The translations under genes and the position numbers were made by a program. Below are positions 1-45,845 of a stretch of DNA of 64,000 nt, piece by piece (the stretch's first letter is position 1; each line of letters opens with the position of its first letter). The notes under the pieces are model-generated. The model made no database searches. It saw only the letters and a list, made by a program, of their open reading frames with translations, and was not told the origin of the DNA. Source of the DNA: Candidatus Latescibacterota bacterium (GTDB lineage Bacteria; Latescibacterota; UBA2968; UBA8231); NCBI GenBank assembly GCA_965223905.1, contig CBDCXV010000001.1, positions 64,001 through 128,000 of the forward strand, read 5' to 3'.

Positions 1-225
1 GGCCCCGGCCCGGGCAAGCTCGTCGACCGAGGCGAAGGTCCGGATTTGCCTCTCCTGCCCCGGCTGCAGCTGCGCGGCGACGCGCTCGGCGAGATCCTCG
101 TGGCCGTCGGCGATGGCGCTCAGCTCGCAGGTCCCCTCCCGGTTGGCCAACTCCTGAACGTGCAGCGCGTGGTAGATGCCGATGCGGCCGACGCCGACGG
201 CGGCGATTTTGAGGAAAGCGGCCAT
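1..225 (-). CDS. Gfo/Idh/MocA family oxidoreductase, N-terminal part (runs off the window)
   Basis: Manual translation from the ATG at 225: MAAFLKIAAVGVGRIGIYHALHVQELANREGTCELSAIAD... This has a Rossmann GxGxxG+H start typical of the family. It starts 7 nt after the mtnP stop and is absent from the ORF track. Confidence 0.8.
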   Translation of the reverse strand, partial: MAAFLKIAAVGVGRIGIYHALHVQELANREGTCELSAIADGHEDLAERVAAQLQPGQERQIRTFASVDELARAGA

Positions 226-232
226 GCGGCGG

Positions 233-1114
233 CTACCTGAAATACCTGCCGTAGAGGGGCTCCAGCCGGGCCCTGGCCTCGGCGCCGATCGCCTCGGGCG
301 CGGTGATGATGGCGTGGCGTGCCGCCTCCAGGCACTCGCACTCCGACTCGGCCGGCAGGGCCGCCGCCACCTCGGCGATGATGCGGTTGGCGGCCTCGGC
401 GTTCGCCCTCAGCGTTTCGATCACCGCGGCGACCGACACGTCCTCCTCCTCCTCGTGCCAGCAGTCGTAGTCGGTCCCCATCGCCAGCATGCTGTAGCAG
501 AGCTCGGCCTCGCGGGCGAGCTTGGCCTCGGGGACCGCGGTCATGCCGATGACGGAGGCGCCGACGACCTCCTTGTAGTGGAAGGATTCGGCGCGGGTCG
601 AGAACTGCGGCCCCTCCATGCAGAGATAGGTCCCGCCTGCGTGCACGGTGGCGCCGCAGGCGCGTCCCGCGGCGGCGACCACGGCACCGAGCTCGGCGCA
701 GAACGGGTCGGCCATCGAGACGTGGCCGACGATGCCGTCGCCGAAGAAGGTGTGGGGGCGCAGGTCGCGGGTGCGGTCGAAGATCTGGTCCGGTATCACC
801 ATCTCTCCCGGCCTGATCCGCTCCTTCATGATGCCGACGGCGCTGGCCGAGAGCAGGTGGGTGACCCCCACCTGCTTCAGGGCATGTATGTTGGCGCGGT
901 AGGGAACCTCGGTCGGGGTCAGCCTGTGCCCCTTGCCGTGCCGGGGGATGAACCAGGCGCCGCGGCCGGAGATCCTCGCCTCGATCAGGGCATCCGAAGG
1001 GGGGCCGTACGGGGTCTCCACAGGGTGCTCGGCCACCACCTCGACCCCGTCCATCTGGTAGAGACCGGAGCCGCCGATTACGCCCAGGAGAACAGGTTTT
1101 GCCGATGTTGCCAT
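233..1114 (-). CDS. mtnP: S-methyl-5'-thioadenosine phosphorylase
   Basis: Motifs GVIGGSGLY, RHGKGH, YRANIHALK, EGPQFSTRAES, GMTAVPEAKLAREAELCY, TDYDCWH. Start taken at MATSAKP. Confidence 0.95.
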   Translation of the reverse strand: MATSAKPVLLGVIGGSGLYQMDGVEVVAEHPVETPYGPPSDALIEARISGRGAWFIPRHGKGHRLTPTEVPYRANIHALKQVGVTHLLSASAVGIMKERIRPGEMVIPDQIFDRTRDLRPHTFFGDGIVGHVSMADPFCAELGAVVAAAGRACGATVHAGGTYLCMEGPQFSTRAESFHYKEVVGASVIGMTAVPEAKLAREAELCYSMLAMGTDYDCWHEEEEDVSVAAVIETLRANAEAANRIIAEVAAALPAESECECLEAARHAIITAPEAIGAEARARLEPLYGRYFR

Positions 1115-11623: not shown

Positions 11624-11654
11624 ATTCGGAAGCCAACCCGGAAAGAGTGGTCAC

Positions 11655-12478
11655 ATGCGAACCCCAATTTTCTCGATTCCGATTTTCTTTGTAATGACAT
11701 GGTCTCTACGGATGCGCAGTTCCAAGACCGGCTGTATCCGTTCATCGAGCTGACCGACGAGATGCGGGATCGCATCGACCTCAAGGACGGCTCCGTGGAT
11801 GACTGGTTGGAAGTCCTCGGCGAACCGACGTTGACGCCCCTGGATTTGGCACCCTACCCGAATTGGGGGGGACAGTACGATCCCTCCTCCTTCGACTTCC
11901 GCATCTGGCTGGCCTGGCACCATGGCGGTAATCACCTTTTCGTAGCAGCGGAGATGGTCGACGATTTTGTCCACGAGCGTTCCAACGACCGTTTCACAAG
12001 CGGACCAGGAATAACCAACGGCGACTTATCCCTGTGGTTTTTTGTCGACGGGGACAGGAGCGGTGGAAGCCTGTTCATCGACAACGCATCCGGGCTCACA
12101 AATCACATGGAGCAGGCACAATGTTACAGCGCGTTTCCTGGTTCATATGACGACGGCACCAACGTCTTTCTGCCTTGGGTCAGTCGTGATACCCCGGATT
12201 GGGTGCACCAGCCACCCCATGCCGACGGCGGCGGCGCCGTGATCGACAGCGAGCCACGCTTCGGCGTGTTGGAGTTTTACGCCACCCCATTCGATCGCCT
12301 GATCTGGGATGACCAGGACCAAAGTATCGTCTCCCCGTGGAGGGTACCGCTGTCGACAAAGTATCATGGGCCCGCATCAAGGCCAGCCTTTCGGAATAGC
12401 CGCACCGTATCCGGTAAATGGCCCGGAAACTGGTTGAGCTCCGCACTTGCGGGGACGGTCAGCCGCCCCTTTTCTTGA
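11655..12478 (+). pseudogene. Secreted CBM9/DOMON-like family protein, divergent paralog of 31088/34143, frameshifted in the signal peptide and 3'-truncated
   Basis: MRTPIFSIPIFFVM shifts frame at about 11697 into ...AQFQDRLYPFIELTD..IDLKDGSVDDW..GEPTLTPLD..YDPSSFDFRIWLAW..DGDRSGG..EFYATPFDRL. Similarity stops at about 12334, and the SWARIK tail is missing. Confidence 0.75.
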
Positions 12479-21131: not shown

Positions 21132-22622
21132 CTAAGGCAGCGAGGTCGTCCCCATCAGGTAGCGGTCGCACTCGCGGGCGGCGCCTCGTCCCTCGTTGAT
21201 CGCCCACACGACGAGGCTCTGCCCCCGTCTCATGTCGCCGGCGGCGAACACCCCCTCGACGCTGGTGGCGAAGCGGTCGTGCCCGGCCCTGGCGTTGGAA
21301 CGCTCGTCGCGCTCGACGTTGAGCTGATCGAGCACCGGGTCCTCCGGTCCGAGGAACCCCATCGCCAGCAGCACGAGATCGGCCGGCCACACCTTTTCGG
21401 TCCCGGGGACCGGCTGCGGCGCCATGTGGCCGCCGGCTCCCGGCGCCCATTCGATCCCCACCGTGTGCAGCTCCCTGACGTTGCCTTCGCCGTCGCCGAC
21501 GAACCTCGTGGTGTTGATCAGGTAGGTGCGCGGGTCCTCGCCGAAGCGGGCGGCCGCCTCTTCCTGGCCGTAGTCGAGCAGGTAGACGTTCGGCCACTCG
21601 GGCCAGGGATTGTCCGGGGCGCGCTCGTCGGGCGGCCGCGGCATGATTTCGAACTGCGTCAGGCTCCTGCAGCCGTGGCGCATCGAGGTGCCGACGCAGT
21701 CGGTGCCGGTGTCGCCGCCGCCGATGACGATGACGTGCTTGTCCCTTGCGGAGATGTAGTTGCCGTCGGCGTGGCCGGAGTCCATCAGGCTCTTCGTGTT
21801 CGCCGTCAGGAACTCCATGGCGAAGTGGACGCCGTTGAGCTCGCGCCCCTCTACCGGCATGTCGCGCCCCTTGGTCGCCCCACCGCACAGGACCACGGCG
21901 TCGAACTCCTCGATCAGCCGCGGCGCCGGGATGTCCCTGCCGATCTCGGTGTTGGTGACGAACTCGACCCCCTCGGCCTCCATCAGCTGCAGCCGCCGCG
22001 TCACCACCGCCTTGTCGAGCTTCATGTTCGGGATGCCGTACATCAGCAGGCCGCCGATGCGGTCGGCGCGCTCGTACACGGTGACCCAGTGTCCGGCGCG
22101 GTTCAGCTGCGCGGCGCAGGCGAGGCCCGCGGGCCCGGATCCGACGACGGCGACCCGCCTGCCGGTTCGTTTCTCCGGCGGCTCGGGGAGCACCGTGCCG
22201 GCGGCGAAGCCGTGGTCGACGATGGCGGCCTCGATGTTCTTGATCGTCACCGGGGGCTCGTTTATGCCGAGCACGCAGGCCCCTTCGCAGGGAGCGGGGC
22301 AGACGCGCCCGGTGAACTCGGGGAAGTTGTTGGTCTTGTGCAGCCGCTCCAGCGCGTCTTCCCAGAGGCCGCGGTAGACCAGGTCGTTCCACTCCGGGAT
22401 CAGGTTGTTGATCGGACAGCCCGACCCCTTGTCGCTGCGGCTCATCGACGCCCCGGTGTGGCAGAACGGGACGCCGCAGTCCATGCAGCGCGAACCCTGG
22501 TCCCGCAGCTTCTCCACCCCCATGTGAAGGTGGAACTCGTCCCAGTCCTTCACCCTTTCGAGCGGAAATCGATCCCGCGGCAGCTCCCGCTCGATCTCCA
22601 TGAATCCGGTCGGTTTGCCCAT
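21132..22622 (-). CDS. gltD: Glutamate synthase small subunit
   Basis: [65 protein letters not shown]. Confidence 0.97.
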
Positions 22623-22766
22623 TACTTCAACCTGCCACGGTGTTGCTTGCTGATCGGCGCTCGCCGAGCGGGAGCGAGCCTTCCAACCACACGGGAGCCA
22701 AAACAAAGTTTTCGCGACTCGCGCGCTTGCGTACGCGCAGGCTCGAGGGCGCTGCAGAGCGCGCGG

Positions 22767-22798
22767 CGATCTCCATGGATCCGGTCGGTTTACCCATT
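22767..22798 (-). repeat. Duplicated first codons of gltD
   Basis: CGATCTCCATGGATCCGGTCGGTTTACCCATT matches 22592-22623 CGATCTCCATGAATCCGGTCGGTTTGCCCATT at 30/32. Confidence 0.85.
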
Positions 22799-23095
22799 CG
22801 GTTTCCCGCAAGCGCTTAGAGGTAGGTCACTGAGCACCTCCCTGTTGGAAGCGTTTGTCTGAGGACTGATGTCCGTACTTTCAATCATTTTTCGAGATTT
22901 TCTAATGTCACTATTGCTCGGATTCCTGCAGCGGACAGTCACTGTTGACACAAAATCTCCGGATCAATCTGAAAAATGGCCCTCTGCATTGAGATCCCGT
23001 GAAACTACTCGCTACAACTTATGTTGCCCTCGGCCATTTTCTCTTCCACAATTTCCACTTGTTGAAGAATGTTCACGCCAATGTATCCCTATTCT

Positions 23096-24169
23096 TTACT
23101 TTAGCGTAGAGGTGGGCTCCCAAGTGAACTCAACATCCGGGCTCTGATCTTGAAGAATCTTCATCGCTGCGGCCCAGGACTGACCCCACTGATTACTGAA
23201 GACGTACGTCTTTCCTTCGTGGATAAATAGATCTCCTTCGCTGGTATGCCAACGTCGATCGTCGTATCGCCTACCATTCGTTTCTGCGTCGGCAGTTGCC
23301 AATCGATGAAACTCGTTCCTGTCTTGAGTTTCCCCCTCGATCCCAAACCAAACCCTGCTACCCTTCACTGGTGCCAGCATCTCCGCGATGGCATTCGGCG
23401 TTTTCCCACTTTCATTGAGGTATTTGACTACGAGCAGAATCGCGTTTCGTTTCCATTGAGACCGATAGACGGTCCCGTCAATGGTCACATCAAACCTCGT
23501 GAAGTCCGCGTTCGACTTCAGAGTCTGTCTCTCCTGCCTCTTCTTCTCCCGAACCTGGATCTGGTAATCAGCTGCCTCGGGCAATGGAACCACCTGTTGA
23601 ACATCAATAAAAACATGCCCATCATACGCATATGATTGGATCCGAACGCACCTGATATCGAGATCCTTCTCGTTCAGCCAAATCACAGAACTAGTTAATT
23701 CCCGTGAGAAATCTGCAGATACAAGAACAATTCGGACGTCTTGGGCAAATCTGTCCTCGTCAAGATTCTCCCATTCCAGGAATTCCAAAAGCAAAGTCTC
23801 CGGGTCACCGTCTTTTCCCCTTCGCCGAAGGTAGTTCCCGAATATCTCTATGGAGTTCGCGGCAGTTAGCGTAGAAACCATCGCTGCGTAGCGGAGCGCC
23901 TGAAGCTCCATGTGTCCACCATCTGGAGTTCGCTTCAACTCAACAACAACCAGATTGGCATCTCGGTCCACGCCAAGCAGGTCGATTCTCCTGCGCGATT
24001 CCTCCCAATCCCCGAACTCCTCTGCGATTATCAGGACATCTTGCGCCACAACCTCGATTTGGTGGCGAAGAAGCCTTTGAAGATCTCTACGCTCGTGGAG
24101 TTGGACCTCGCTAAAGGTTGTTGGCTCGATTGCCTCTATCTTGTCTTTTGTGAGTTCGAATATGGCCAC
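23096..24169 (-). CDS. NucS/EndoMS-like PD-(D/E)xK endonuclease with uncharacterised C-terminal domain
   Basis: ERRDLQ, EEF, RIDLLGVD..LVVVELKR, QALRYAA, C-terminal FSNQWG. Visibly lower GC than its flanks. Confidence 0.75.
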   Translation of the reverse strand: MAIFELTKDKIEAIEPTTFSEVQLHERRDLQRLLRHQIEVVAQDVLIIAEEFGDWEESRRRIDLLGVDRDANLVVVELKRTPDGGHMELQALRYAAMVSTLTAANSIEIFGNYLRRRGKDGDPETLLLEFLEWENLDEDRFAQDVRIVLVSADFSRELTSSVIWLNEKDLDIRCVRIQSYAYDGHVFIDVQQVVPLPEAADYQIQVREKKRQERQTLKSNADFTRFDVTIDGTVYRSQWKRNAILLVVKYLNESGKTPNAIAEMLAPVKGSRVWFGIEGETQDRNEFHRLATADAETNGRRYDDRRWHTSEGDLFIHEGKTYVFSNQWGQSWAAAMKILQDQSPDVEFTWEPTSTLK

Positions 24170-29026: not shown

Positions 29027-29602
29027 ATGCGTGACCTCGATCAGCAGGAGAAAACCATCGCCCGCGCCCTCATCCGCAACCCGCGGCGTTCGGACAACCG
29101 CATCAGCGCCACGACCGGGATTCCGGTGCGCACCGTGAGCCGCAAACGCCAGCGTTTGGAACAGGAAGGTATTCTGAAGTACTACACCGCCGTGGAGATG
29201 CAGGGGAACGGCACCTCGCGCTTCACCACCCAGCACATGATCATCATCAAGTTCACCCTCGGCGTGACCCGCAGCCAGATCGTCGAGGAGATCCGCAGCG
29301 AGCCCAACGTCGCCAACGTCTTCAGCGAGCTGATACGCGACAGCTTCATTGCCGAGACCGACGGACAGGTGGCGCTGGTGATGATCGTCGAAGGAGAATC
29401 GGACAGCGACGTCGCCGACAGCCTGCAGGGGAAGATCATCCCCTCGCTCCAGAAGAACCACGGCAGGGACTCGATCGACGAGCTGCGCACCATTCGCCTG
29501 CTAGGCACCATCCGCCGCGAGCACAACTACCTTCCGATGGTCAACATGAGCGCCGCCGTGCTCGACGACGACTGGCCTGACGAGGCGATCTTCGTCGGTT
29601 AG
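29027..29602 (+). CDS. Lrp/AsnC family transcriptional regulator
   Basis: N-terminal HTH NPRRSDNRISATTGIPVRTVSRKRQRLEQEGIL; divergent from gltB. Confidence 0.75.
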   Translation: MRDLDQQEKTIARALIRNPRRSDNRISATTGIPVRTVSRKRQRLEQEGILKYYTAVEMQGNGTSRFTTQHMIIIKFTLGVTRSQIVEEIRSEPNVANVFSELIRDSFIAETDGQVALVMIVEGESDSDVADSLQGKIIPSLQKNHGRDSIDELRTIRLLGTIRREHNYLPMVNMSAAVLDDDWPDEAIFVG

Positions 29603-29890
29603 ACCCTGGGGCATTCAGGAGGCGGATTCTGGGGGGAACATCGCTTCCTTTTCCATCCCTCCGACGTTACTCGGCCACCCCTTGCGAGCCGGCAGCCTCC
29701 GGGTGAATTGCCCTTCCCGCCGGGATTTGCCTGGTTGTCCCATGACTGAAATAACTCCTTGACATGCCCCCCTTTTTTGCGGCACGTTGCACTCAGTCTG
29801 GTCACCACCGGCAACGGGCGGGGACGAGGTTAGATGGTCGGTGAAGCGATGCCGGGGTGATTCCTCTCACTGCAAGGCGGTTTGGAAGGT

Positions 29891-30511
29891 ATGACCTCCC
29901 GCAAGCCTGCAGTACTGATCTCCTGCGGTCTGATCCTGGGCCTGACCGGCGGAGTCGCCGTTCTCCTCCACCTCAACTCCCAAGCCCGCGCCCGCCACTT
30001 CGATCCCGCGCTCCCGGCGCTCCCCTCCGCGACACAGCTTCTGGCCGCCACCCGGCAGTTCGACCCTTCCCTCGCTTCCATCGACCTCCAGTTGCTCCAC
30101 GAGGCCCGGCCGCTGCCCCGCTCCGGTCTGCTGCAGCTTTACCGGGTCTCCGACAAGGGCCGGCCGGTCTACGACCTGGCGCTGGTGCGCCACGACATCG
30201 CCTGCGGCACCTGCCGCGACCTGCTGGCCGCCGTCTACCTGGACGCCTTGACCCAAGAGGTCGCCGGGGTGGCCCCCCTGGAAGCCTGGGAGAAGGAGGG
30301 CGGCTCCTTCGCTCCGGACGCCTTCCTGGCGCAGCTGAAAGGGACTTCCCTGGGCGATTCGCTGCAGGTCGGCCAGGACCTGGACGGCATCAGCGGGGCG
30401 ACGCTGACGGTCGGCGCCATGCTGACCGAGCTGCGCGGGCTGCGTTTCTGGTTCACCTCGAGAACGGCAACCCGAGGCATGACACGAACGGATTACATGC
30501 CCGCAACCTGA
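29891..30511 (+). CDS. Membrane-anchored FMN-binding (RnfG/NosR-type flavinylation) domain protein
   Basis: N-terminal TM, CGTC, FLAQLKG, flavinylation motif DGISGATLT. Confidence 0.7.
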   Translation: MTSRKPAVLISCGLILGLTGGVAVLLHLNSQARARHFDPALPALPSATQLLAATRQFDPSLASIDLQLLHEARPLPRSGLLQLYRVSDKGRPVYDLALVRHDIACGTCRDLLAAVYLDALTQEVAGVAPLEAWEKEGGSFAPDAFLAQLKGTSLGDSLQVGQDLDGISGATLTVGAMLTELRGLRFWFTSRTATRGMTRTDYMPAT

Positions 30512-30927
30512 GCAACCACGAAAGCTTCGACATGCGCCCGTCGTGGTCTCCTGACGGATCCTGGATAGCCTTCCAGAGTACCCGCTACGGCGAAAGCGAA
30601 ATCTGTATTGTCAACGCCGACGGCGGCGAAGTGGTGAATGTCAGTAATCATCCTGCTCGCGACGAAGCGCCTTCGTGGTCTCCTGACGGTTTGGAGATCG
30701 CTTTCGCATCGAACCGAAGCGGTAGTTCTGACATCTACCGTATCGCCGCTGATGGATCGGCTGTGAACAAGGTCACGCAGGGTCCGGCCAACGACAGGGA
30801 GCCGGCGTGGTCTCCTGACGGAAGAAGTATCTGCTTCGTCTCCAACAGACGCGAGACCGTCTTGGAAGCGTTCTCCCAGTGGATAGCGCGCCCTGTTGAG
30901 GGGGCCATTAGAGCCATAGAGCCTTGA
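30478..30927 (+). pseudogene. TolB/PD40 beta-propeller fragment lacking its 5' end
   Basis: Three (S/A)WSPDG..I(A/C)FxS repeats in a different frame from the FMN gene; no convincing own start. Confidence 0.7.
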
Positions 30928-31087
30928 GCTGAATCCGCAAGAACGACAGTCCGGGTGGGTCGACCGGTCAGTCGCTCATAGGAAGAATGTCGCAAGGGTC
31001 AGAAAATGAACCCATGTGGATCGCAACGCTGGTGATGCCGACCGGTTCAAGATACCGGGACCGCCCCTCTGGCAGGAGGATTACAGG

Positions 31088-32023
31088 ATGCAACAACCCA
31101 TTTGGCTCAAGTTCGCCCTCTCATTGGCAGGCTTCCTCTCTGTCGCAGACGCCCAACCCCCGGACCGCATCTATCCTATCGTGGAGTTGACCGACCGCGA
31201 CGTCGCCGAGATCGACGTTACGGACGGTTCCGTCGAGGACTGGGAAAACATCGTCGGGGAGCCCACGCTCACCCCGCTGGACTTCGCGAAAACCCTACTT
31301 AGATCGTACGATCCTTCTGATATGGATTTTCGCATCTGGCTTGGATGGCACGATGCCACTGACCGGATCTTCTTCGCCATGGAGAGGGTCGACGACGTAT
31401 ACGTCAACGACTTCGACCGCAAGGATGAGAGTCTGGGCAATAATATTATGAGTTTGCACGACTCCTCGGTTTCGTTTGCCGTTGACGGAGACCACTCAGG
31501 TGGCGCGGTGTCCCCCGAGGAATCTTCAGAGGATTGGCTGCAGGACGTCCGCCAGGCGCAGGTTTTCCATGCGCTCGGGGAGGTTTTCGACGGGGGCTCC
31601 CAGCTTGGCATCTTCCCCCATTCGATTCATATGGGTGCGGACTGGTTCAGTCAGCCTCCGTTTGCACACGGAAGCGGCGCAGTGGTTGGCGGATCCCCCA
31701 TCTTCTCGGTGACGGAATTCTACGTGACGCCGTTTGACCGCTTTGTATCGACGGGTCCGGAAGACAGTGACGTGTCCGATCTGTTCGGCGGAAAGATCAT
31801 CGGTTTCAACATTCAGGTATACGACGTTGATGATCCTAGGCGCAACCGGGAGACCGTCCACCTGCTAGCAGCCCCCCCATCCCACGATTTTTTTAGGCCT
31901 CTGTTGGCGATGTCAGCAGACGACTTCGCCGACGGGGTTCTGATTACGCCGGATGGCTTGTCATCCGAAGATTCGGCGGTCGAAAGCGATTCCTGGGCCC
32001 GGATCAAGGCGACTTTCGAATAG
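31088..32023 (+). CDS. Secreted CBM9/DOMON-like protein with C-terminal SAVESDSWARIKA motif, copy A
   Basis: AGGAGG RBS, Sec signal (..VADA|Q), DGSVEDW, DDVY, DGDHSGG, EFYVTPFD, IGFNIQVYDVD. Fold call is inference. Confidence 0.8.
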   Translation: MQQPIWLKFALSLAGFLSVADAQPPDRIYPIVELTDRDVAEIDVTDGSVEDWENIVGEPTLTPLDFAKTLLRSYDPSDMDFRIWLGWHDATDRIFFAMERVDDVYVNDFDRKDESLGNNIMSLHDSSVSFAVDGDHSGGAVSPEESSEDWLQDVRQAQVFHALGEVFDGGSQLGIFPHSIHMGADWFSQPPFAHGSGAVVGGSPIFSVTEFYVTPFDRFVSTGPEDSDVSDLFGGKIIGFNIQVYDVDDPRRNRETVHLLAAPPSHDFFRPLLAMSADDFADGVLITPDGLSSEDSAVESDSWARIKATFE

Positions 32024-32153
32024 TTTCCCCCAAGCCCGAAGGGTACAGGGAACACCAATCGCGGGGTCGAGGCCTCTCCGCTGCGAGCGGGTGTGGACTA
32101 TCATCCTATGGACCTGTCCCAGTTCGACAGGTTCTCCCCCACACCTTCTCTCC

Positions 32154-33728
32154 GGGTGTCTTAGCTGATTGTTACGGTTTCGGTGGTTGTTTTTAGGTTT
32201 TCTCGGTACTGCTGAAAGACCCGGTCAAGCGTTCCATTGTACAAGGCGCAGCGCAGGGCCAGAATGGCGTTGCTGTTTTCCTTATACCACCAAGCGCCCG
32301 ACCGTTTCAGACGAACGTGGCCGATGAAGCGATGCGCCGATTCGATCGCCCCCGACCCGATCGGGTATCCGCCCTTGCGATGGCTGCCGAAATCGACCTG
32401 GTGCAGTCGCTTTTGCAGGTAGGTCAAGGCCGTGCCGATGGCCTCTCCGGCCTCTTCCGAGAGCGGCTGCATGCGCTGCAGACCCCAGACCACGCCGCTG
32501 CCCTCGCCGCAGAACAGGCGCGCCAGGGTCGCTTCCAGCCAATGGGCAGCACGCGCCGCATCGGCGCCGTATTGGGCCTCGGCCACCGCGTGCAGGTAGC
32601 TGCTGCAATGGTAGTAGTCGAGGATCTGACGGGCGCTCGGGAACAGCTCTTCCACCCACTTCCAGATCCACGGAGCGCCATCTCCGATGGCACACAAGCG
32701 CACCTGATCCTCCGGGATCAGCCCCGCCTCCTTGACCTGGCGCAAGGCCGCGCCGAAGGCCTGTTCGTTGCCCATCTGGTGCCAGGAGATCAGCTGCTCG
32801 ATGCGCTCATCGTCTATCAGGTAGAAGCGAAAGCCCTTGGCTTCGTGGTATTCCCCCTGCCAACGCCTTCGCCGAGCCCGGCTCTTCTTGCGTCCGGGAC
32901 GGGTGCCTTTGGCGGTCTGGGGACGACTGGGCACGTCGGCCGCGTCGATGGCCAACACCACGATCGGCCGCCACTTGCGACCGGCGGCGGCTTGCGCAAT
33001 GCGATCCTGGATATCGGCCGCGTCCGGACACACCTGCAGCACGTCCAACGACCCGGTCTGTTGCAGCACCTCGTGAATCACACAATCGCTCATCGACGCG
33101 TCGGTGAGCTCGTCCAACAGTTCGGCGGCGCGCCGGTGGGGCATCTCCAGCCCCAGCTTGACCCCGGCCTGCTGCACGTCCCACTGCTTGCGCTGCGCCG
33201 ACAGGCCCAGGGCCTCGTCCAGCGGATAGAACCCGTGGTGACAGCCAACGCAGTAGAAATAGGGACGCTCCAAGGTCACCGGCCCGAGCAGCGTCTCCAC
33301 CGTGCGCGAGCGAGACGGGCGCGCTCGCAGCAGGCCTTTGCACTTGGGGCAGGCCGCCTCTTCCTGGGCCAGGAAATGGCCGTGGCGGCGTTCGACGAAG
33401 GCTTCCACCAAGGCCGCGGTGAGCCCGGAGCGCTCTTGAGACATCGCCGCGGTGATCTCCATCAACGTCGGCGCACAAGATCCGCGCTCGCTCATTTGCG
33501 TCTCCACCCGATCCAGCCATTGGTCCAAGGCTTCATGCGCCCGGCTTCGAAAGCGGTCCTGACTCTGCCGCTCCTGAAAAACTTCCAGAGAGAGAATCGC
33601 ACTCATCGCTCCCCTTCTTTCTGAAATCAGGGGAGCGCGCCGCAGGGGATGCGGAAAAAGAAAGCAACTTACTGTAAAATATACACATACGCACCTGAAT
33701 TGCGCTATAACAATTACTTAAGACGCCC
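32154..33728 (-). mobile_element. Complete IS element, ISKra4-like, 1575 bp
   Basis: Imperfect 21-bp IRs GGGTGTCTTAGCTGATTGTTA / GGGCGTCTTAAGTAATTGTTA; 8-bp TSD TTCTCTCC at 32146-32153 and 33729-33736. Confidence 0.9.
32161..33606 (-). CDS. DDE transposase, ISKra4/UPF0236-like
   Basis: CPKC..RPYFYC..C zinc ribbon, IGDGAPWIW, LDYYH, GYPIGSGAIESA, RLKRSGAWW. Confidence 0.9.
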   Translation of the reverse strand: MSAILSLEVFQERQSQDRFRSRAHEALDQWLDRVETQMSERGSCAPTLMEITAAMSQERSGLTAALVEAFVERRHGHFLAQEEAACPKCKGLLRARPSRSRTVETLLGPVTLERPYFYCVGCHHGFYPLDEALGLSAQRKQWDVQQAGVKLGLEMPHRRAAELLDELTDASMSDCVIHEVLQQTGSLDVLQVCPDAADIQDRIAQAAAGRKWRPIVVLAIDAADVPSRPQTAKGTRPGRKKSRARRRRWQGEYHEAKGFRFYLIDDERIEQLISWHQMGNEQAFGAALRQVKEAGLIPEDQVRLCAIGDGAPWIWKWVEELFPSARQILDYYHCSSYLHAVAEAQYGADAARAAHWLEATLARLFCGEGSGVVWGLQRMQPLSEEAGEAIGTALTYLQKRLHQVDFGSHRKGGYPIGSGAIESAHRFIGHVRLKRSGAWWYKENSNAILALRCALYNGTLDRVFQQYRENLKTTTETVTIS

Positions 33729-33878
33729 TTCTCTCCATGAGGTGGACCCCATTCTTTGGACAGCCCGACAGCAGAATTAATAAAGTTGATGCCTCCCGGG
33801 AGCTACCTTCAATAGGTGTGGAAAAAGAGAAAAGGCGACCCTATAGCCGATGCAGGAACTTGAAAAGGAGGTGCAGCC

Positions 33879-34020
33879 GTGAGGGCGAAGTGGATCGGTG
33901 TCTTAACGCTGGCATCGGGCTAGTCTTCTCCAGTCAGGTCCACGGACATTTCGGTGCCAGGATCCTCCCCATATTCGAGATCACCGATGACATGCTCGCA
34001 CAGATCGAGCTGGACGGTCG
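33879..34020 (+). pseudogene. N-terminal fragment of a fourth member of the secreted family
   Basis: AAGGAGG RBS; GTG RAKWIGVLTL-(1-nt slip)-IGLVFSSQVHG|HFGARILPIFEITDDMLAQIELDG aligns with DRIYPIVELTDRDVAEIDVTDG. Confidence 0.6.
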
Positions 34021-34142
34021 GTCAGCTCATGTCCGCCATGCTCAGCGAGCCCAACCAGCAGGTCGAGATCAGGACCGAGGCGGTCCTGGATCCACAGCGC
34101 CCTGAGCTCTCTTCTCCGCCACAATTCAGGAGGGATTACAGG

Positions 34143-35072
34143 ATGCAACAACCCATTTGGCTCAAGCTCGCCCTCTCATTGGCAGGCTTCCTCTCTGTCG
34201 CAAACGCCCAACCCCCGGACCGCATCTATCCAATAATGCAGTTGACCGACCGCGACGTCGCCGAGATCGACGTGACGGACGGTTCAGTCGATGACTGGGA
34301 GTATATCGTCGGGGAGCCCACGCTCACCCCGCTGGACTTCGCGCAAACTTTTAATAGCTACGATCCTTCTGATATGGATTTTCGCATCTGGCTTGGTTGG
34401 CACGATGCCACTGACCGAATTTTCTTCGCCATGGAGAGGGTCGACGACGTATACGTCAACGAATTCGACCGCGAGGATGAGAATCTGGGCATTCTGATTC
34501 ATCACGACTCCTCGGTGTCGTTTGCCGTTGACGGAGACCACTCGGGCGGGGCGGTGTTCCCCCAGGAACGTTCAGAGAATATCTTGCAGGACGCTTGGCA
34601 GGCGCAGGTTTTCCATGCGCTCGGGGAGGTTTTCGACGGGGGCTCCCAGCTTGGCATCTTCCCCCTTTTGCATCAGGTGAGTGACGACTGGTTCAGTCAG
34701 CCTCCGTTTGCACACGGAGGCGGCGCAGTGGTTGGCGGATCCCCCATCTTCTCGGTGACGGAATTCTACGTGACGCCGTTTGACCGCTTGGTACCGACGG
34801 GGGATCCGGAAGACAGTGACGTGTCCGATCTGTTCGGCGGAAAGATCATCGGTTTCAACATTGAGGTATTCGACGTTGATGATCAGCCTGGGGTGGAGAC
34901 CATCCACAAACTAGCAGTCCCCCCATCCTACGAATCTTATAGTCATCTGTTGTTGATGTCAGCCGACTACTTCGCCGACGGGGTTCTGGTCACGCCGGAT
35001 GGCTTGTCATCTGAAGATTCGGCGGTCGAAAGCGATTCCTGGGCCCGAATCAAGGCCAGCTTGGCGGAATAG
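34143..35072 (+). CDS. Secreted CBM9/DOMON-like protein with C-terminal SAVESDSWARIKA motif, copy B
   Basis: Close paralog of 31088-32023 from the RBS to the last codons. Confidence 0.8.
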   Translation: MQQPIWLKLALSLAGFLSVANAQPPDRIYPIMQLTDRDVAEIDVTDGSVDDWEYIVGEPTLTPLDFAQTFNSYDPSDMDFRIWLGWHDATDRIFFAMERVDDVYVNEFDREDENLGILIHHDSSVSFAVDGDHSGGAVFPQERSENILQDAWQAQVFHALGEVFDGGSQLGIFPLLHQVSDDWFSQPPFAHGGGAVVGGSPIFSVTEFYVTPFDRLVPTGDPEDSDVSDLFGGKIIGFNIEVFDVDDQPGVETIHKLAVPPSYESYSHLLLMSADYFADGVLVTPDGLSSEDSAVESDSWARIKASLAE

Positions 35073-35129
35073 CCGAGCTAACGTCCGGGTACTACCCCCG
35101 GGTGCCGGCCTCCGGTGGTTCCGCCAGCC

Positions 35130-36527
35130 TTAGTCCGCTTCCTTCACCGCGTTGACCAGATCGACCACCGCCTCCCTGGCGCTGCCGAAGTACATCAGCG
35201 TGTTGTCGGCCGCGAACAGCGGGTTGGCGATGCCGGCGAACCCCGGGCTCAGGGAGCGCTTGATCACCACCACGGTGCGCGCCTTGTCGACATCGAGAAT
35301 CGGCATGCCGGCGATCGGTCCGGAGTCCGCGACCCGGGCCACCGGATTGACGACGTCGTTGGCCCCTATCACGAGCACGACGTCGGTCTGCTCGAAGCCC
35401 GGGTTGACGAGGTCCATCTCCTTGAGCTGCTCGTAGGGAACCTCGGCCTCGGCCAGGAGCACGTTCATGTGCCCCGGCATGCGCCCGGCTACGGGGTGGA
35501 TGGCGTACTCGACCTCGATGCCGCGCGCCTCCAGCAGGCCGGCGAGATCGCGCACCGCGTACTGGGCCTGGGCGACCGCCATGCCGTAGCCCGGCACGAC
35601 GACGACCCGCCGCGCCGTGTCGAACAGCATGGCCACCTCCGCGGCCGACGTCGACTTCACCTTGCCTTCGTAGACCTCGTCGTCCCCTCCAGCGGGTCCG
35701 GTCCCGGCGCCGACCCCCCCGAAGAAGACGTTGCCCAGCGAGCGGTTCATGGCGCGGCACATGATCTGCGTCAGGATCAGCCCGGAGGCGCCGACCAGGG
35801 ACCCGGCGATGATGAGGATGTTGTTCTGCAGCACGAAGCCGGTCGCCGCGGCGGCGAGGCCGGAGCAGGAGTTGAGAAAGGCGATGACCACCGGCATGTC
35901 GGCGCCCCCGATGGCGACGACGACCGCGGCCCCCAGCAGGCTGGCCGCGGCCGCCAGGACCCAGTATGCCTGCGGGGACGACGGCTCGGCGACGACCCAG
36001 GCCGCCGCCGCCAGGGACGCGGCCCCGAGGAGGGCGTTGAGAAGCTGCCGGCCGGGAAACAGCAGGGGGTTTCCCGCCATCAACTCCTGAAGCTTGGCGA
36101 AGGCGATGACGCTGCCCCAGAAAGTCACCGCCCCGATCAGCCCGGACGCCGCGGTGGCGACCGTGAACTGAGCCGCCGGAGCCGCTTGCGACAGGCTGCT
36201 CTCAGCGAGGGCGGCGCCGGCGACCAGCACCGAGGCAACCCCCCCGAAGCCGTTGAACAGCGCCACCAGCTGCGGCATCGCCGTCATCTCGATGCGGACG
36301 GCGAGCACCCCGCCGACCAGGGCGCCGGCGACCACCCCGGCGAGGATCAGCTCGAAGCTGAGGATCTGGCGGCTCAGCAGCGTCGCAACCACGGCAAGCA
36401 ACATGCCGCAGGCACCCAGCAGGTTGCCGCGCACCGCGGTGCGCGGATGGGTGAGCCCCTTGAGGCCGAGGATGAAGAGCACCGCGGCCGCGAGGTAGGC
36501 GGCGGCGATCAGGGTGTCGAACGGCAT
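35130..36527 (-). CDS. pntB: NAD(P) transhydrogenase subunit beta
   Basis: MPQLVALFNGFGG, GGADMPVVI, VPGYGMAVAQAQ, HPVAGRMPGHMNVLLAEA, GANDVVNP. Confidence 0.97.
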   Translation of the reverse strand: MPFDTLIAAAYLAAAVLFILGLKGLTHPRTAVRGNLLGACGMLLAVVATLLSRQILSFELILAGVVAGALVGGVLAVRIEMTAMPQLVALFNGFGGVASVLVAGAALAESSLSQAAPAAQFTVATAASGLIGAVTFWGSVIAFAKLQELMAGNPLLFPGRQLLNALLGAASLAAAAWVVAEPSSPQAYWVLAAAASLLGAAVVVAIGGADMPVVIAFLNSCSGLAAAATGFVLQNNILIIAGSLVGASGLILTQIMCRAMNRSLGNVFFGGVGAGTGPAGGDDEVYEGKVKSTSAAEVAMLFDTARRVVVVPGYGMAVAQAQYAVRDLAGLLEARGIEVEYAIHPVAGRMPGHMNVLLAEAEVPYEQLKEMDLVNPGFEQTDVVLVIGANDVVNPVARVADSGPIAGMPILDVDKARTVVVIKRSLSPGFAGIANPLFAADNTLMYFGSAREAVVDLVNAVKEAD

Positions 36528-45479: not shown

Positions 45480-45845
45480 ATGCGCAAGCCTGTGGTTGCC
45501 CCCGAATGGGCCTGCAACTTTGTCATCGATGAAGACGATGTCAGCACCGAGGTCGACAGCCCCGCTGCCGGGATCACCGCCAGGGAGATATCGCTCTCGC
45601 AGAATTTCCCGAATCCGTTCAATCACACAACCCGGATAGATTTCGCCCTGCCGGAGTCCGCCGAGGTGGAGATATCCGTTTACGACCTGAGCGGCCAGAG
45701 AATACGGACCCTTGTCCGGGAATTCGTGACCCGGGGGAAACACACCGTCAGGTGGGACGCATCCGGTCTGACGACAGGCGTCTATCTGTACCGGATCAGG
45801 TCCGGCAACTTCGAGGACGTGAAACGGGCAACGTTGATCAAGTGA
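45480..45845 (+). pseudogene. Orphan T9SS-type/FlgD C-terminal sorting domain (5'-truncated gene)
   Basis: LSQNFPNPFN..IDFALP..VYDLSGQRIRTL..WDASGLTTGVYLYRI..KRATLIK; no signal peptide or passenger domain. Confidence 0.75.

Follow-up and report, generated by a model that had tools for sequence, protein, structure and literature searches.

A tandem pair split by an insertion sequence

The window analysed here, 64,000 nucleotides of a 1.7-Mb contig from a Candidatus Latescibacterota bacterium, carries two neighbouring genes on its plus strand, which we call A and B. Copy A (31088..32023, stop codon included) encodes a predicted secreted protein of 311 amino acids with a CBM9-type fold, and matches the HMM of its family with E 8e-145. 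Copy B (34143..35072), recognised by its ORF, by alignment and by the family HMM, encodes a 309-residue paralogue; a longer GTG-initiated ORF overlaps it from 33954, with homology absent upstream of 34143. Over their full length the two proteins share 254 of 311 residues (82%) with five gap positions, and similarity at the DNA level extends from about 10 nt before the ATG to the stop codon. Directly upstream of A is a PD40 gene encoding a TolB-like beta-propeller repeat (30403..30927, plus strand; PF07676, E 1e-36).

Between A and B lies an ISKra4-family insertion sequence of 1576 bp on the minus strand (32153..33728), with a transposase ORF at 32161-33606 (NF033572, E 4e-74), imperfect terminal inverted repeats and a target duplication of 5-7 bp (TTCTC/TTCTCTC). 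On either flank of it, the A-B spacer (plus strand, 32021..32152, resuming 3' of the element at 33729..33795) matches the 244-nt spacer of a related array on contig C6, with 95-96% identity in the first half. The genome holds 14 copies of the element at 99.8-100% identity, and contigs of three runs show empty-site joints, where the spacer lacks it. The array of A and B has been split by a recent ISKra4-family insertion.

Two further broken relatives had been announced for the window in the initial annotation, of which one is a broken gene indeed (11624..12475, plus strand; HMM columns 18-237, E 3e-69), its tail piece lying in another frame at 12313-12396 (columns 295-314, E 2e-4) and columns 238-294 being absent. 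The other is only a short N-terminal remnant of a more divergent member, directly upstream of B (about 33914..34015, plus strand; columns 13-46, weak hmmsearch E of 0.003).

The same annotation had raised the concern that A and B might be strain haplotypes of one gene, placed in tandem by the assembler. The bin probably contains a mixture of strains to some degree, given an estimated contamination of 5.11%, a flank of the C6 array that is 93% identical to the flank of A, and an overlap of C6 with contig C4 at 99.2%. Several findings speak against such an artefact. Substitutions at 10% of nucleotides (95 of 921 aligned) and indels distinguish A from B, with spacer and insertion sequence between them on the long contig; the junction from spacer to next copy recurs in contigs of three runs that belong to three studies; and tandem arrays of the family are present in the single-contig genomes G002 and G012, with tandem copies also in G001. 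A and B are true paralogues and adjacent members of a tandem array, and we regard a haplotype origin as exceedingly improbable.

The family to which they belong is very large, lineage-specific and unnamed, and consists of apparently exported proteins of about 300 residues. It spans 1090 clusters at 50% identity (E <= 0.001) and occurs in all 63 sampled genomes of the taxonomic family; the three genomes of the genus gave 66, 102 and 91 matches, and G012 gave 38. This genome alone contains 93 ORF pieces of the family, of which 23 are full length, and the many broken copies fit birth-and-death evolution with decay.

A CBM9-type sandwich with hypervariable loops

An AlphaFold2 model of A (mean pLDDT 83.4) bears out the earlier assignment to a CBM9/DOMON-type sandwich. 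VIA-align places it closest to the CBM9 modules of Caldicellulosiruptor kristjansonii CBM9.3 (7nwn, Z 19.4; 7nwo, Z 18.9) and Thermotoga maritima Xyn10A CBM9-2 (1i82, Z 18.7), with 186-188 residues aligned to 7nwo and 1i82 at an rmsd of 2.4 A and 186-194 across CBM9 structures; Foldseek matches the CBM9-type fold with E 1e-8. Judged from the model, then, these proteins are CBM9 beta-sandwiches, sharing the sandwich over the whole module. They differ from CBM9 (PF06452) in standing alone behind a signal peptide, whereas CBM9 is appended to a xylanase, in being about 70 residues longer, with the extra length between the aligned ends (model 27..287 against chain 0..188), in having only 14-15% identity, and in occurring in about 100 copies per genome with hypervariable loops. 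No Pfam or NCBIfam model matches the family, and both A and B fall below the Pfam CBM9_1 threshold; PF06452 is nevertheless matched by two weak members of the family as well as by two long, fused relatives, and is carried by 37%, 13% and 94% of members of the nearest Atlas clusters. BACUNI_03838 of Bacteroides uniformis (PDB 4jpq), a stand-alone putative carbohydrate-binding protein, shares the fold (Z 16.9 over 201 aligned residues) at 8% identity; neither an expansion nor variable loops of that protein came to light in these data.

The model also resembles DOMON-like heme subunits (7b04, Z 10.8; 2ivf, Z 10.6) and, more distantly, the cytochrome domains of cellobiose dehydrogenase (Z 5.5-6). 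The fold might accordingly serve a non-glycan role, for instance as a DOMON-like carrier (heme or redox) or as an adaptor for protein binding, the loops then facing a protein partner, and it would suit such a role that PD40 paralogues adjoin family genes at four other loci and that a fifth has a 25-aa fragment. The CBM9 matches, however, reach far higher Z scores and extend over the whole CBM9 domain, and related sequences carry PF06452, so that we consider this improbable.

Residues 1-22 of A (31088..31153; B, 34143-34208) read as a Sec signal peptide, with a basic n-region, a hydrophobic core and A-D-A followed by Q. The region is conserved among 99 homologues and is modelled as a helix (residues 8-21) of low pLDDT; export of the family proteins is inferred from it. 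At the other end lies a conserved 20-residue tail, SSEDSAVESDSWARIKATFE (31961..32020; B, 35010-35069), modelled with pLDDT below 50. Of 68,173 ORFs searched, 76 have the tail motif within their final 14 residues, compared with 9 in a random-position control, and its carriers include proteins with LVIVD, PD40, FGE-sulfatase, FlgD_ig and CBM9_1 domains, which makes the tail a candidate sorting or anchoring tag.

The six peptide patches by which the initial annotation had told A from B are all found, at A residues 68, 112, 142, 178, 250 and 262. They fall in five or six hypervariable segments: HV1 (residues 67-73, 31286..31306, with indels; B, 34341-34358; HMM columns 70-75), HV2 (residues 112-124, 31421..31459; B, 34473-34505; columns 114-126), HV3 (residues 141-156, 31508..31555; B, 34554-34601; columns 143-159), which contains a short helix according to DSSP, HV4 (residues 174-184, 31607..31639; B, 34653-34685; columns 181-189), and HV5 with HV6 (residues 250-279, 31835..31924; B, 34884-34970; columns 250-278). 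The picture of a constant framework with indel-rich variable loops holds well beyond this locus: across four genomes, 36 independent paralogue pairs show their pN peaks in the same columns, hypervariability of the HV1 columns extends to 31 pairs from other subfamilies, and indels are in-frame and mostly concentrated in loop columns. The CBM9 sugar site is an aromatic clamp borne on loops and differing among modules (PMC8280721). Placed around that site by strand order, HV3 would be the counterpart of the loop bearing the first aromatic clamp residue, and HV6 would lie at the expected position of the second clamp tryptophan (Trp175 of 1i82).

Evolution of the loops

Differences between A and B are clustered (variance 3.69 per 15-nt window against a shuffle mean of 1.37, with none of 5000 shuffles as high). 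The longest identical run is 70 nt (shuffle mean 46, P 0.033), and a reported 67-nt block (31553-31619 = 34599-34665) is an exact match that cannot be extended at either end. The codon count of the last patch was likewise reproduced (9 non-synonymous and 1 synonymous among 18 codons), but with non-synonymous and synonymous sites at about 3.4:1 this ratio is near the neutral expectation.

The rates do not sustain the strong diversifying selection that had been proposed for the loops. When the loop columns are taken from other subfamilies, 31 pairs of those subfamilies give a loop pN/pS of 0.91; the value is 1.55 between A and B (P 0.15) and 1.34 in five pairs of the A/B subfamily (P 0.086), neither of these two being significant; a site-wise test of 265 columns found none individually significant. 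A maximum-likelihood omega for the A/B subfamily is marginally above 1 in the loops (1.43; 2dlnL 3.94 against omega = 1). In the scaffold the corresponding values are 0.25 for pN/pS and 0.38 for omega, which points to a scaffold kept by purifying selection.

Most of these rates fit unconstrained drift equally well, with a loop pN/pS of 0.94 in 32 paralogue pairs as a further near-neutral value and with not one site significant. The loops could then be drifting neutrally, with conversion, in a redundant and decaying expansion without selected diversity of specificities, and the many frameshifted or truncated copies (the surplus of pieces over full-length ORFs, copy C6d, and the broken gene in the window) would belong to such a decay. 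Several observations weigh against relaxed constraint as the only process. In six orthologue-like pairs, all from genomes other than this one, loop pN/pS is 0.66 when pooled, below the value for the paralogue pairs, and two of the six keep their loops (pN 0.05-0.07) despite a scaffold pS of 0.17-0.18, which suggests some constraint on loop sequences; the family is retained throughout its taxonomic family; one pair of loops is nearly shared with another species (below); and the loop omega of the A/B subfamily is, if anything, elevated. We therefore hold relaxed constraint alone to be rather unlikely, although it is the most serious of the alternatives.

The copies are mosaics in which loops are replaced as entire blocks. 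A PHI test detects recombination (P 0.0015; 53% of informative site pairs incompatible), and among 90 loops of 18 close pairs, 23 are at most 3% divergent while 26 are at least 20% divergent. HV3 and HV4 of A are 97% identical to those of a copy in G002, another species, with only 81% overall identity, and HV6 of B is 95.7% identical to that of the C11 copy. A strict donor search across 89 sequences and five loops yielded one explicit donor only, so that block replacement is seen but its sources mostly are not.

The scarcity of donors, the all-or-nothing divergence of loops within a close pair, and a synonymous divergence that is higher in loops than in scaffold (0.30 against 0.205; 0.226 against 0.136 for A and B) might suggest that the loops are rewritten by a dedicated mechanism, either a diversity-generating retroelement (DGR) or some other system of localised hypermutation, as the initial annotation had also entertained; the raised synonymous divergence may partly reflect misalignment. 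The genome contains six RVT_1 matches, none of which adjoins A or B, and the four that are full length comprise three group II intron maturases and one retron Ec67-type reverse transcriptase. No template-like repeats were found at these four loci, nor any extra copy of A or B loop DNA outside the paralogues. A DGR has a single variable region, unlike the family, in which five or six patches vary separately and carry in-frame indels. Some loop variants are also common to several species. Targeted diversification is accordingly very improbable here.

A probable germline repertoire of putative binding modules

The explanation that we favour, and consider fairly probable, is a germline repertoire in which secreted CBM9-like binding modules have become diverse through duplication, through mutation and indels in the loops, and through gene conversion. 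Each protein would consist of a Sec-type signal peptide, one CBM9-fold sandwich and the conserved 20-residue tail. Its five or six loops would acquire replacements and in-frame indels about as fast as expected under neutrality, or a little faster, and would be exchanged blockwise between paralogues, with the near-identical scaffold DNA between loops providing the homology for gene conversion. Two of the loops would correspond to the two aromatic sugar-clamp loops of CBM9, as strand order suggests. The most likely targets of the modules are glycans or other surface ligands, bound outside the cell with the loops as putative binding surface, and selection is the presumed force maintaining loop diversity. 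The description of the system as antibody-like is apt for its architecture but not for the source of its diversity, which is germline and spread over many genes.

Similar combinations of constant and variable parts are found in other systems. In Borrelia vlsE, Neisseria pilE/pilS and Anaplasma msp2, segmental gene conversion alters variable segments in a constant frame, with one expression site and promoterless silent cassettes. The family shares with them the constant frame and the conversion between paralogous sequences, but every copy examined here is complete as a gene, having a start, a signal peptide and a conserved upstream spacer of its own. In targets of diversity-generating retroelements, too, the ligand-binding surface varies on a constant scaffold, whereas this family has several separate variable patches with indels, and the four full-length reverse transcriptase loci of the genome show neither a DGR-type enzyme nor a template repeat. 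Wolbachia wsp is an outer-membrane beta-barrel encoded by one gene per genome and varying between strains, in contrast to the soluble-type sandwich described here, with dozens of genes within one genome. A surface protein of a symbiont, it resembles the family in its discrete hypervariable regions, set in a conserved framework and shuffled by recombination into mosaics (PMC2843615).

Copies A and B and the family to which they belong

Copy A (31088-32023, an ORF of 311 aa) and copy B (34143-35072, 309 aa) lie on the same strand and encode proteins that are identical at 254 of 311 residues, with five gap positions. Their DNA likeness extends from about 10 nt 5' of the ATG to the stop codon, and the 95 differences in 921 aligned nucleotides are clustered: the variance across 15-nt windows is 3.69, compared with 1.37 after shuffling, a value that none of 5000 shuffles equalled, and the longest identical run reaches 70 nt (P 0.033). 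The initial annotation had described an identical block of 67 nt, six variable peptide patches and, in the last patch, nine non-synonymous codons to one synonymous; on re-checking the sequence, the block and the patches were found exactly as claimed and the codon count was correct. The underlying observation of a constant framework with variable loops is real, and it reaches far beyond these two copies. Hereafter, the hypervariable loop segments are termed HV1 to HV6 and the remainder the scaffold.

A search with copy A (tblastn) yielded 77 matches in its own genome, and an HMM of the family recovered 93 ORF pieces, of which 23 are full length at E <= 1e-20 and many are split, and hence broken. 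Among 21 related genomes, three members of the same genus contain 66, 102 and 91 matches, one other genus 38 and the rest 0-8, with no family match in any of the eight genomes from two other taxonomic families. In a sample of 151 genomes from the phylum, with up to 15 matches scored per genome, the family occurs in all genomes from its own taxonomic family (63 of 63), filling about 1% of several 7-Mb genomes. Matching genomes were absent from two other families of that sample (f2, 0 of 30; f4, 0 of 19), and weaker matches were seen in f10 (13 of 13), f6 (2 of 2), f13 (3 of 3) and f9 (1 of 6). Public protein collections contain 465 homologues that are similar in length; all either lack a name or are called 'hypothetical', and one is labelled Candidatus Latescibacteria. 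Clustering at 50% identity gives 1090 clusters (E <= 0.001).

The possibility that A and B are two strain haplotypes collapsed in tandem by the assembler was rejected, as 10% of their nucleotides differ, besides indels, and both are placed on one contig of 1.7 Mb; tandem arrays of the family are also present in single-contig genomes. A related array on another contig of this genome, C6, holds four intact or nearly intact copies and a frameshifted one, with a flank 93% identical to that of A. C6 may be a segmental duplication or a co-binned strain (the estimated contamination of the bin is 5.11%), and it overlaps another small contig, C4, over 6 kb (C6:26435-32468 and C4:1-6033; 99.2% identity), which hints at either strain heterogeneity or redundancy among the contigs of the bin. 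Either origin of C6 leaves the conclusions on A and B unchanged.

A CBM9-like fold and a short C-terminal tail

Neither A nor B has a Pfam or NCBIfam match; both fall short of the gathering score of PF06452 that is used for CBM9, and this model is absent even at E <= 1. A family profile compared with the sequences of solved structures gave a chance match only (an antibody light chain, E 1.3). The fold was nevertheless guessed rightly at the outset as a CBM9/DOMON sandwich. An AlphaFold2 model computed from an alignment of 99 homologues (pLDDT 83.4, pTM 0.84, with low confidence for the N-terminal 21 and last 16 residues) has the CBM9 beta-sandwich fold: CBM9 modules rank first in Foldseek (E 1.4e-8 to 4.2e-8), and VIA-align gives the predicted model Z scores of 19.4 to 7nwn, 18.9 to 7nwo (rmsd 2.4 A over 186 residues), 18.7 to 1i82 (rmsd 2.4 A over 188/189), 16.9 to the stand-alone protein 4jpq and 10.6-10.8 to DOMON-type heme subunits. 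PF06452 occurs on 37%, 13% and 94% of the members of the nearest Atlas clusters, whose commonest phyla are Latescibacterota, Gemmatimonadota and Poribacteria. Two weak family members of this genome (C2:359755-360753 and C10:1836983-1837903) reach the PF06452 threshold, and the fused long relatives P0122 and P0123 carry PF06452 together with FlgD_ig, one of them being named by its source as a T9SS sorting-domain protein.

CBM9 modules have three calcium sites, bind carbohydrate at the reducing ends of glucans or xylans and belong to enzymes as non-catalytic modules. The present family is further marked by invariant acidic residues and a VDGDHSGG motif. Rather than being appended to a glycoside hydrolase, A and B are stand-alone proteins of about 310 aa; none of the three longer family proteins found has a recorded hydrolase domain, and 142 of the best 150 cluster representatives are shorter than 400 aa, most of them about 300 aa. 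The N-terminus reads as a predicted Sec signal peptide. From the fold of the model, the PF06452-bearing relatives and this signal-peptide reading, we place the family as a divergent, stand-alone and apparently exported branch of the CBM9-like fold.

In CBM9 modules the sugar is gripped by an aromatic clamp. One clamp residue belongs, in CBM9.3, to a short helix within the loop that joins strands 4 and 5, and the other is, in TmCBM9-2, Trp175 of 189, in a loop near the C-terminus; according to the authors, CBM9 accommodates widely differing binding sites by varying the clamp and its surroundings (PMC8280721). By DSSP strand order and aligned ranges, the clamp positions (Trp71 and Trp175 of 1i82) would fall in HV3 and HV6. 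Trp, Phe or Tyr is present in HV3 and HV6 of most of six close copies, at varying, unconserved positions. If the variable loops do surround the CBM9 groove, the family would be a natural library in which one stable scaffold bears many loop-encoded specificities.

Both proteins end in a tail of 20 residues with the approximate consensus TAVE-x3-SWGRIKAxF (31961-32020 in A and 35010-35069 in B). This tail is found in the last 14 residues of 76 out of 68,173 ORFs, as against 9 at random positions, and 50 of the 76 belong to the family. The same ending is found on about 15 further exported proteins, whose domains are unrelated; five of the ten scanned have Pfam domains, each a different one (FlgD_ig/CarboxypepD_reg, LVIVD, CBM9_1, PD40 and FGE-sulfatase). 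When the family was compared by profile with the CBM9_1 protein of this group (L088), only the signal peptides aligned. No Pfam or NCBIfam model recognises the tail, nor do A and B match the T9SS C-terminal sorting domain (about 75 residues; PF18962/TIGR04183). Since the genome has 29 matches to the classical PF18962 tail elsewhere, the short tail is something else. It may serve as a tag for sorting or anchoring that has yet to be described, and may mark an undescribed route of export or anchoring. The best PF18962 match of the genome lies within the window, in a 145-aa open frame at 45606-45827 (109606-109827 of the contig; E 3e-10).

Family and tail both appear to be undescribed in the literature searched: no printed description of the family came to light there, and the tail motif led only to an unrelated densovirus paper. 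The family likewise lacks a name and a Pfam or NCBIfam model. In the passages searched, papers on sponge symbionts refer to CBM9 or CBMs only within CAZyme counts; their supplementary tables might list such proteins.

Loop variation, selection and exchange between copies

In four genomes, 36 paralogue pairs that are independent of one another in phylogeny (61-98% identical) have pN/pS values of 0.25 to 0.89 over the whole gene, and pN peaks at the same HMM columns throughout, at about 69-77, 113-128, 141-162, 179-190 and 249-280, where gaps and insertions are likewise concentrated. The variable loops are a property of the whole family. Because sites must not be picked by the very differences under test, loop columns (HMM 70-75, 114-126, 143-159, 181-189 and 250-278) were defined on the 31 pairs outside the A/B subfamily, in which pN/pS is 0.91 in loops and 0.25 in scaffold. 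For A and B the corresponding values are 1.55 (P 0.15) and 0.22, and for the five A/B-subfamily pairs pooled 1.34 (P 0.086) and 0.34. Maximum likelihood on ten sequences (GY94) gives an omega of 1.43 for loops (lnL -1326.47 when free versus -1328.44 at omega = 1; 2dlnL 3.94) and 0.38 for scaffold, and none of 265 columns has a significant non-synonymous excess (smallest P 0.108). Loop ratios of 0.91-1.55, the likelihood test and the absence of significant columns therefore do not demonstrate the strong diversifying selection that had been proposed for the loops.

Among 32 within-genome paralogue pairs, pN/pS is 0.94 in loops and 0.35 in scaffold, and among six orthologue-like pairs from two related genomes (G001 and G002) it is 0.66 and 0.31. 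In two of these six, a small orthologue sample, conservation is higher in the loops than at synonymous sites of the scaffold, which suggests that loops are not simply free to drift. Overall, the scaffold is conserved and the loops change about as fast as expected under neutrality, or slightly faster, with hints of constraint once a variant exists. The main rival to a repertoire of binders, neutral drift of loops in a decaying expansion, would accord with the near-neutral loop rates and the many broken copies; with the orthologue-like pairs pointing away from free drift, we regard it as rather unlikely.

Of the informative site pairs in the six close copies that are intact, 53% are incompatible (PHI P 0.0015), and the partitions are block-wise along the gene: A clusters with B in mid-gene and with C6a, a copy of the C6 array, in the last loop region. 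Of the 90 loops in 18 pairs with a scaffold difference below 8%, 23 are at most 3% divergent and 26 at least 20% divergent, so that loops change as blocks. At HV3 and HV4, A shares 97% identity with a G002 copy whose overall identity to it is 81%, and the last loop of B is 95.7% identical to that of a copy on contig C11; no second copy of the remaining loops of either gene is present in the genome, and a strict within-genome search for donors returned one case among 89 sequences by five loops. These incompatibilities, block partitions and all-or-none loop divergences show gene conversion by segments between copies. Synonymous divergence is higher in loops (0.30) than in scaffold (0.205), which fits homogenization of the scaffold by conversion, import of divergent segments or, in part, misalignment.

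Targeted diversification, the other mechanism initially put forward, found no support: surveys of RVT_1 matches, repeats and loop DNA revealed no dedicated diversifier. A diversity-generating retroelement was rejected, there being no RT of that type among the four full-length ones, no template repeat at their loci and no match of A/B loop DNA to anything except paralogues. None of the six RVT_1 matches in the genome is near A or B, and the four full-length ORFs among them encode three group II intron maturases and a retron Ec67-type RT. No direct repeats of at least 40 nt occur at these four loci apart from an unrelated pair of 62 nt (L033:2612-2755; 82 nt apart, 95% identical, just 3' of a maturase ORF), and indels are common in the loops, whereas a template repeat matching the variable region would be expected to show adenine-specific differences and no indels. 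The retron Ec67-family RT/endonuclease (L034, at 29083-32742 of the contig and outside the window; NF038237, E 3e-212) is encoded about 64 kb upstream of A.

Segmental conversion between copies is shared with silent-cassette systems of antigenic variation. Unlike those systems, with a single expression site and promoterless partial cassettes, six of the seven close copies here are complete, with start codon and signal peptide, and the array units share a conserved spacer of 244 nt. Family fragments do exist; no donor role was found for them with respect to the unique loops of A or B.

We favour, and consider somewhat probable, the reading that the family forms a germline repertoire of CBM9-like binders that are exported and whose binding loops have been diversified by mutation, indels and gene conversion. 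A far more specific form of it strikes us as doubtful: that this sponge-associated Latescibacterota lineage has, as a hallmark, a germline repertoire of up to about 100 exported, 'lectin-like' CBM9-fold binders per genome, in which the sugar-clamp loops are cassette-like hypervariable segments shuffled between paralogues over near-identical scaffold DNA, creating a combinatorial set of specificities directed at the surface glycans of host or prey, or at phage, with delivery by the so far undescribed short tail that is shared with unrelated exported proteins. A bolder variant would ascribe to a localised mutational process both the higher synonymous divergence of the loops and their all-or-none replacement, for which few donors can be traced. 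If the variable loops do lie around the groove, such a library would offer insight into the recognition of host or food glycans by uncultivated symbionts, a model for the building of bacterial binding diversity by gene conversion and a scaffold for engineered binders.

Surroundings of the two genes

The interval between A and B corresponds to the 244-nt spacer of the C6 array (95-96% identity), interrupted by an ISKra4-family element of 1576 bp (32153-33728) with a target duplication of 5-7 bp and a transposase ORF matching NF033572 (E 4e-74). As the 14 copies of this element in the genome are 99.8-100% identical, its insertion between A and B is recent, and the element is recently active. The empty-site form and the junction from spacer to next copy are both present in contigs from three public runs; the depth of the element in public runs is far above that of its flanks. 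Contigs of four public runs compared over 30500-35500 are short unitigs, a length at which within-population loop variation is not resolvable. Beyond spacer position 189, the region upstream of B departs from that of A and contains a weak match to the family N-terminus (HMM 13-46, E 0.003), a remnant of another member. At 11624-12475 the window has a third, broken member.

Immediately upstream of A is a PD40-repeat gene (30403-30927), close paralogues of which are found no more than 3 kb from family genes at four more loci of the genome (C6:7831-8277, C10:2133444-2133866, C11:1699188-1699595 and C11:556144-556377), with identities of 97%, 79%, 62.5% and 48% among the four; a fifth has only a 25-aa fragment of it near a family gene. 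This recurrent neighbour could be part of a duplication unit or a functional partner. The 5' part of its long GTG frame is overlapped by an ORF of 209 aa (29882-30511) that has an N-terminal membrane helix and no Pfam match at E <= 0.01.

Pieces from one RNA run (X16) fall on the insertion element and flanking genes only; at 95% likeness no piece matches A or B, and so they permit no inference on the expression of A and B. An RNA run labelled sponge metagenome contains a piece of 183 nt identical to the flanking gene. Elsewhere in the window, G+C content falls to 0.564 at 22001-24000, against 0.62-0.72 in the remainder.
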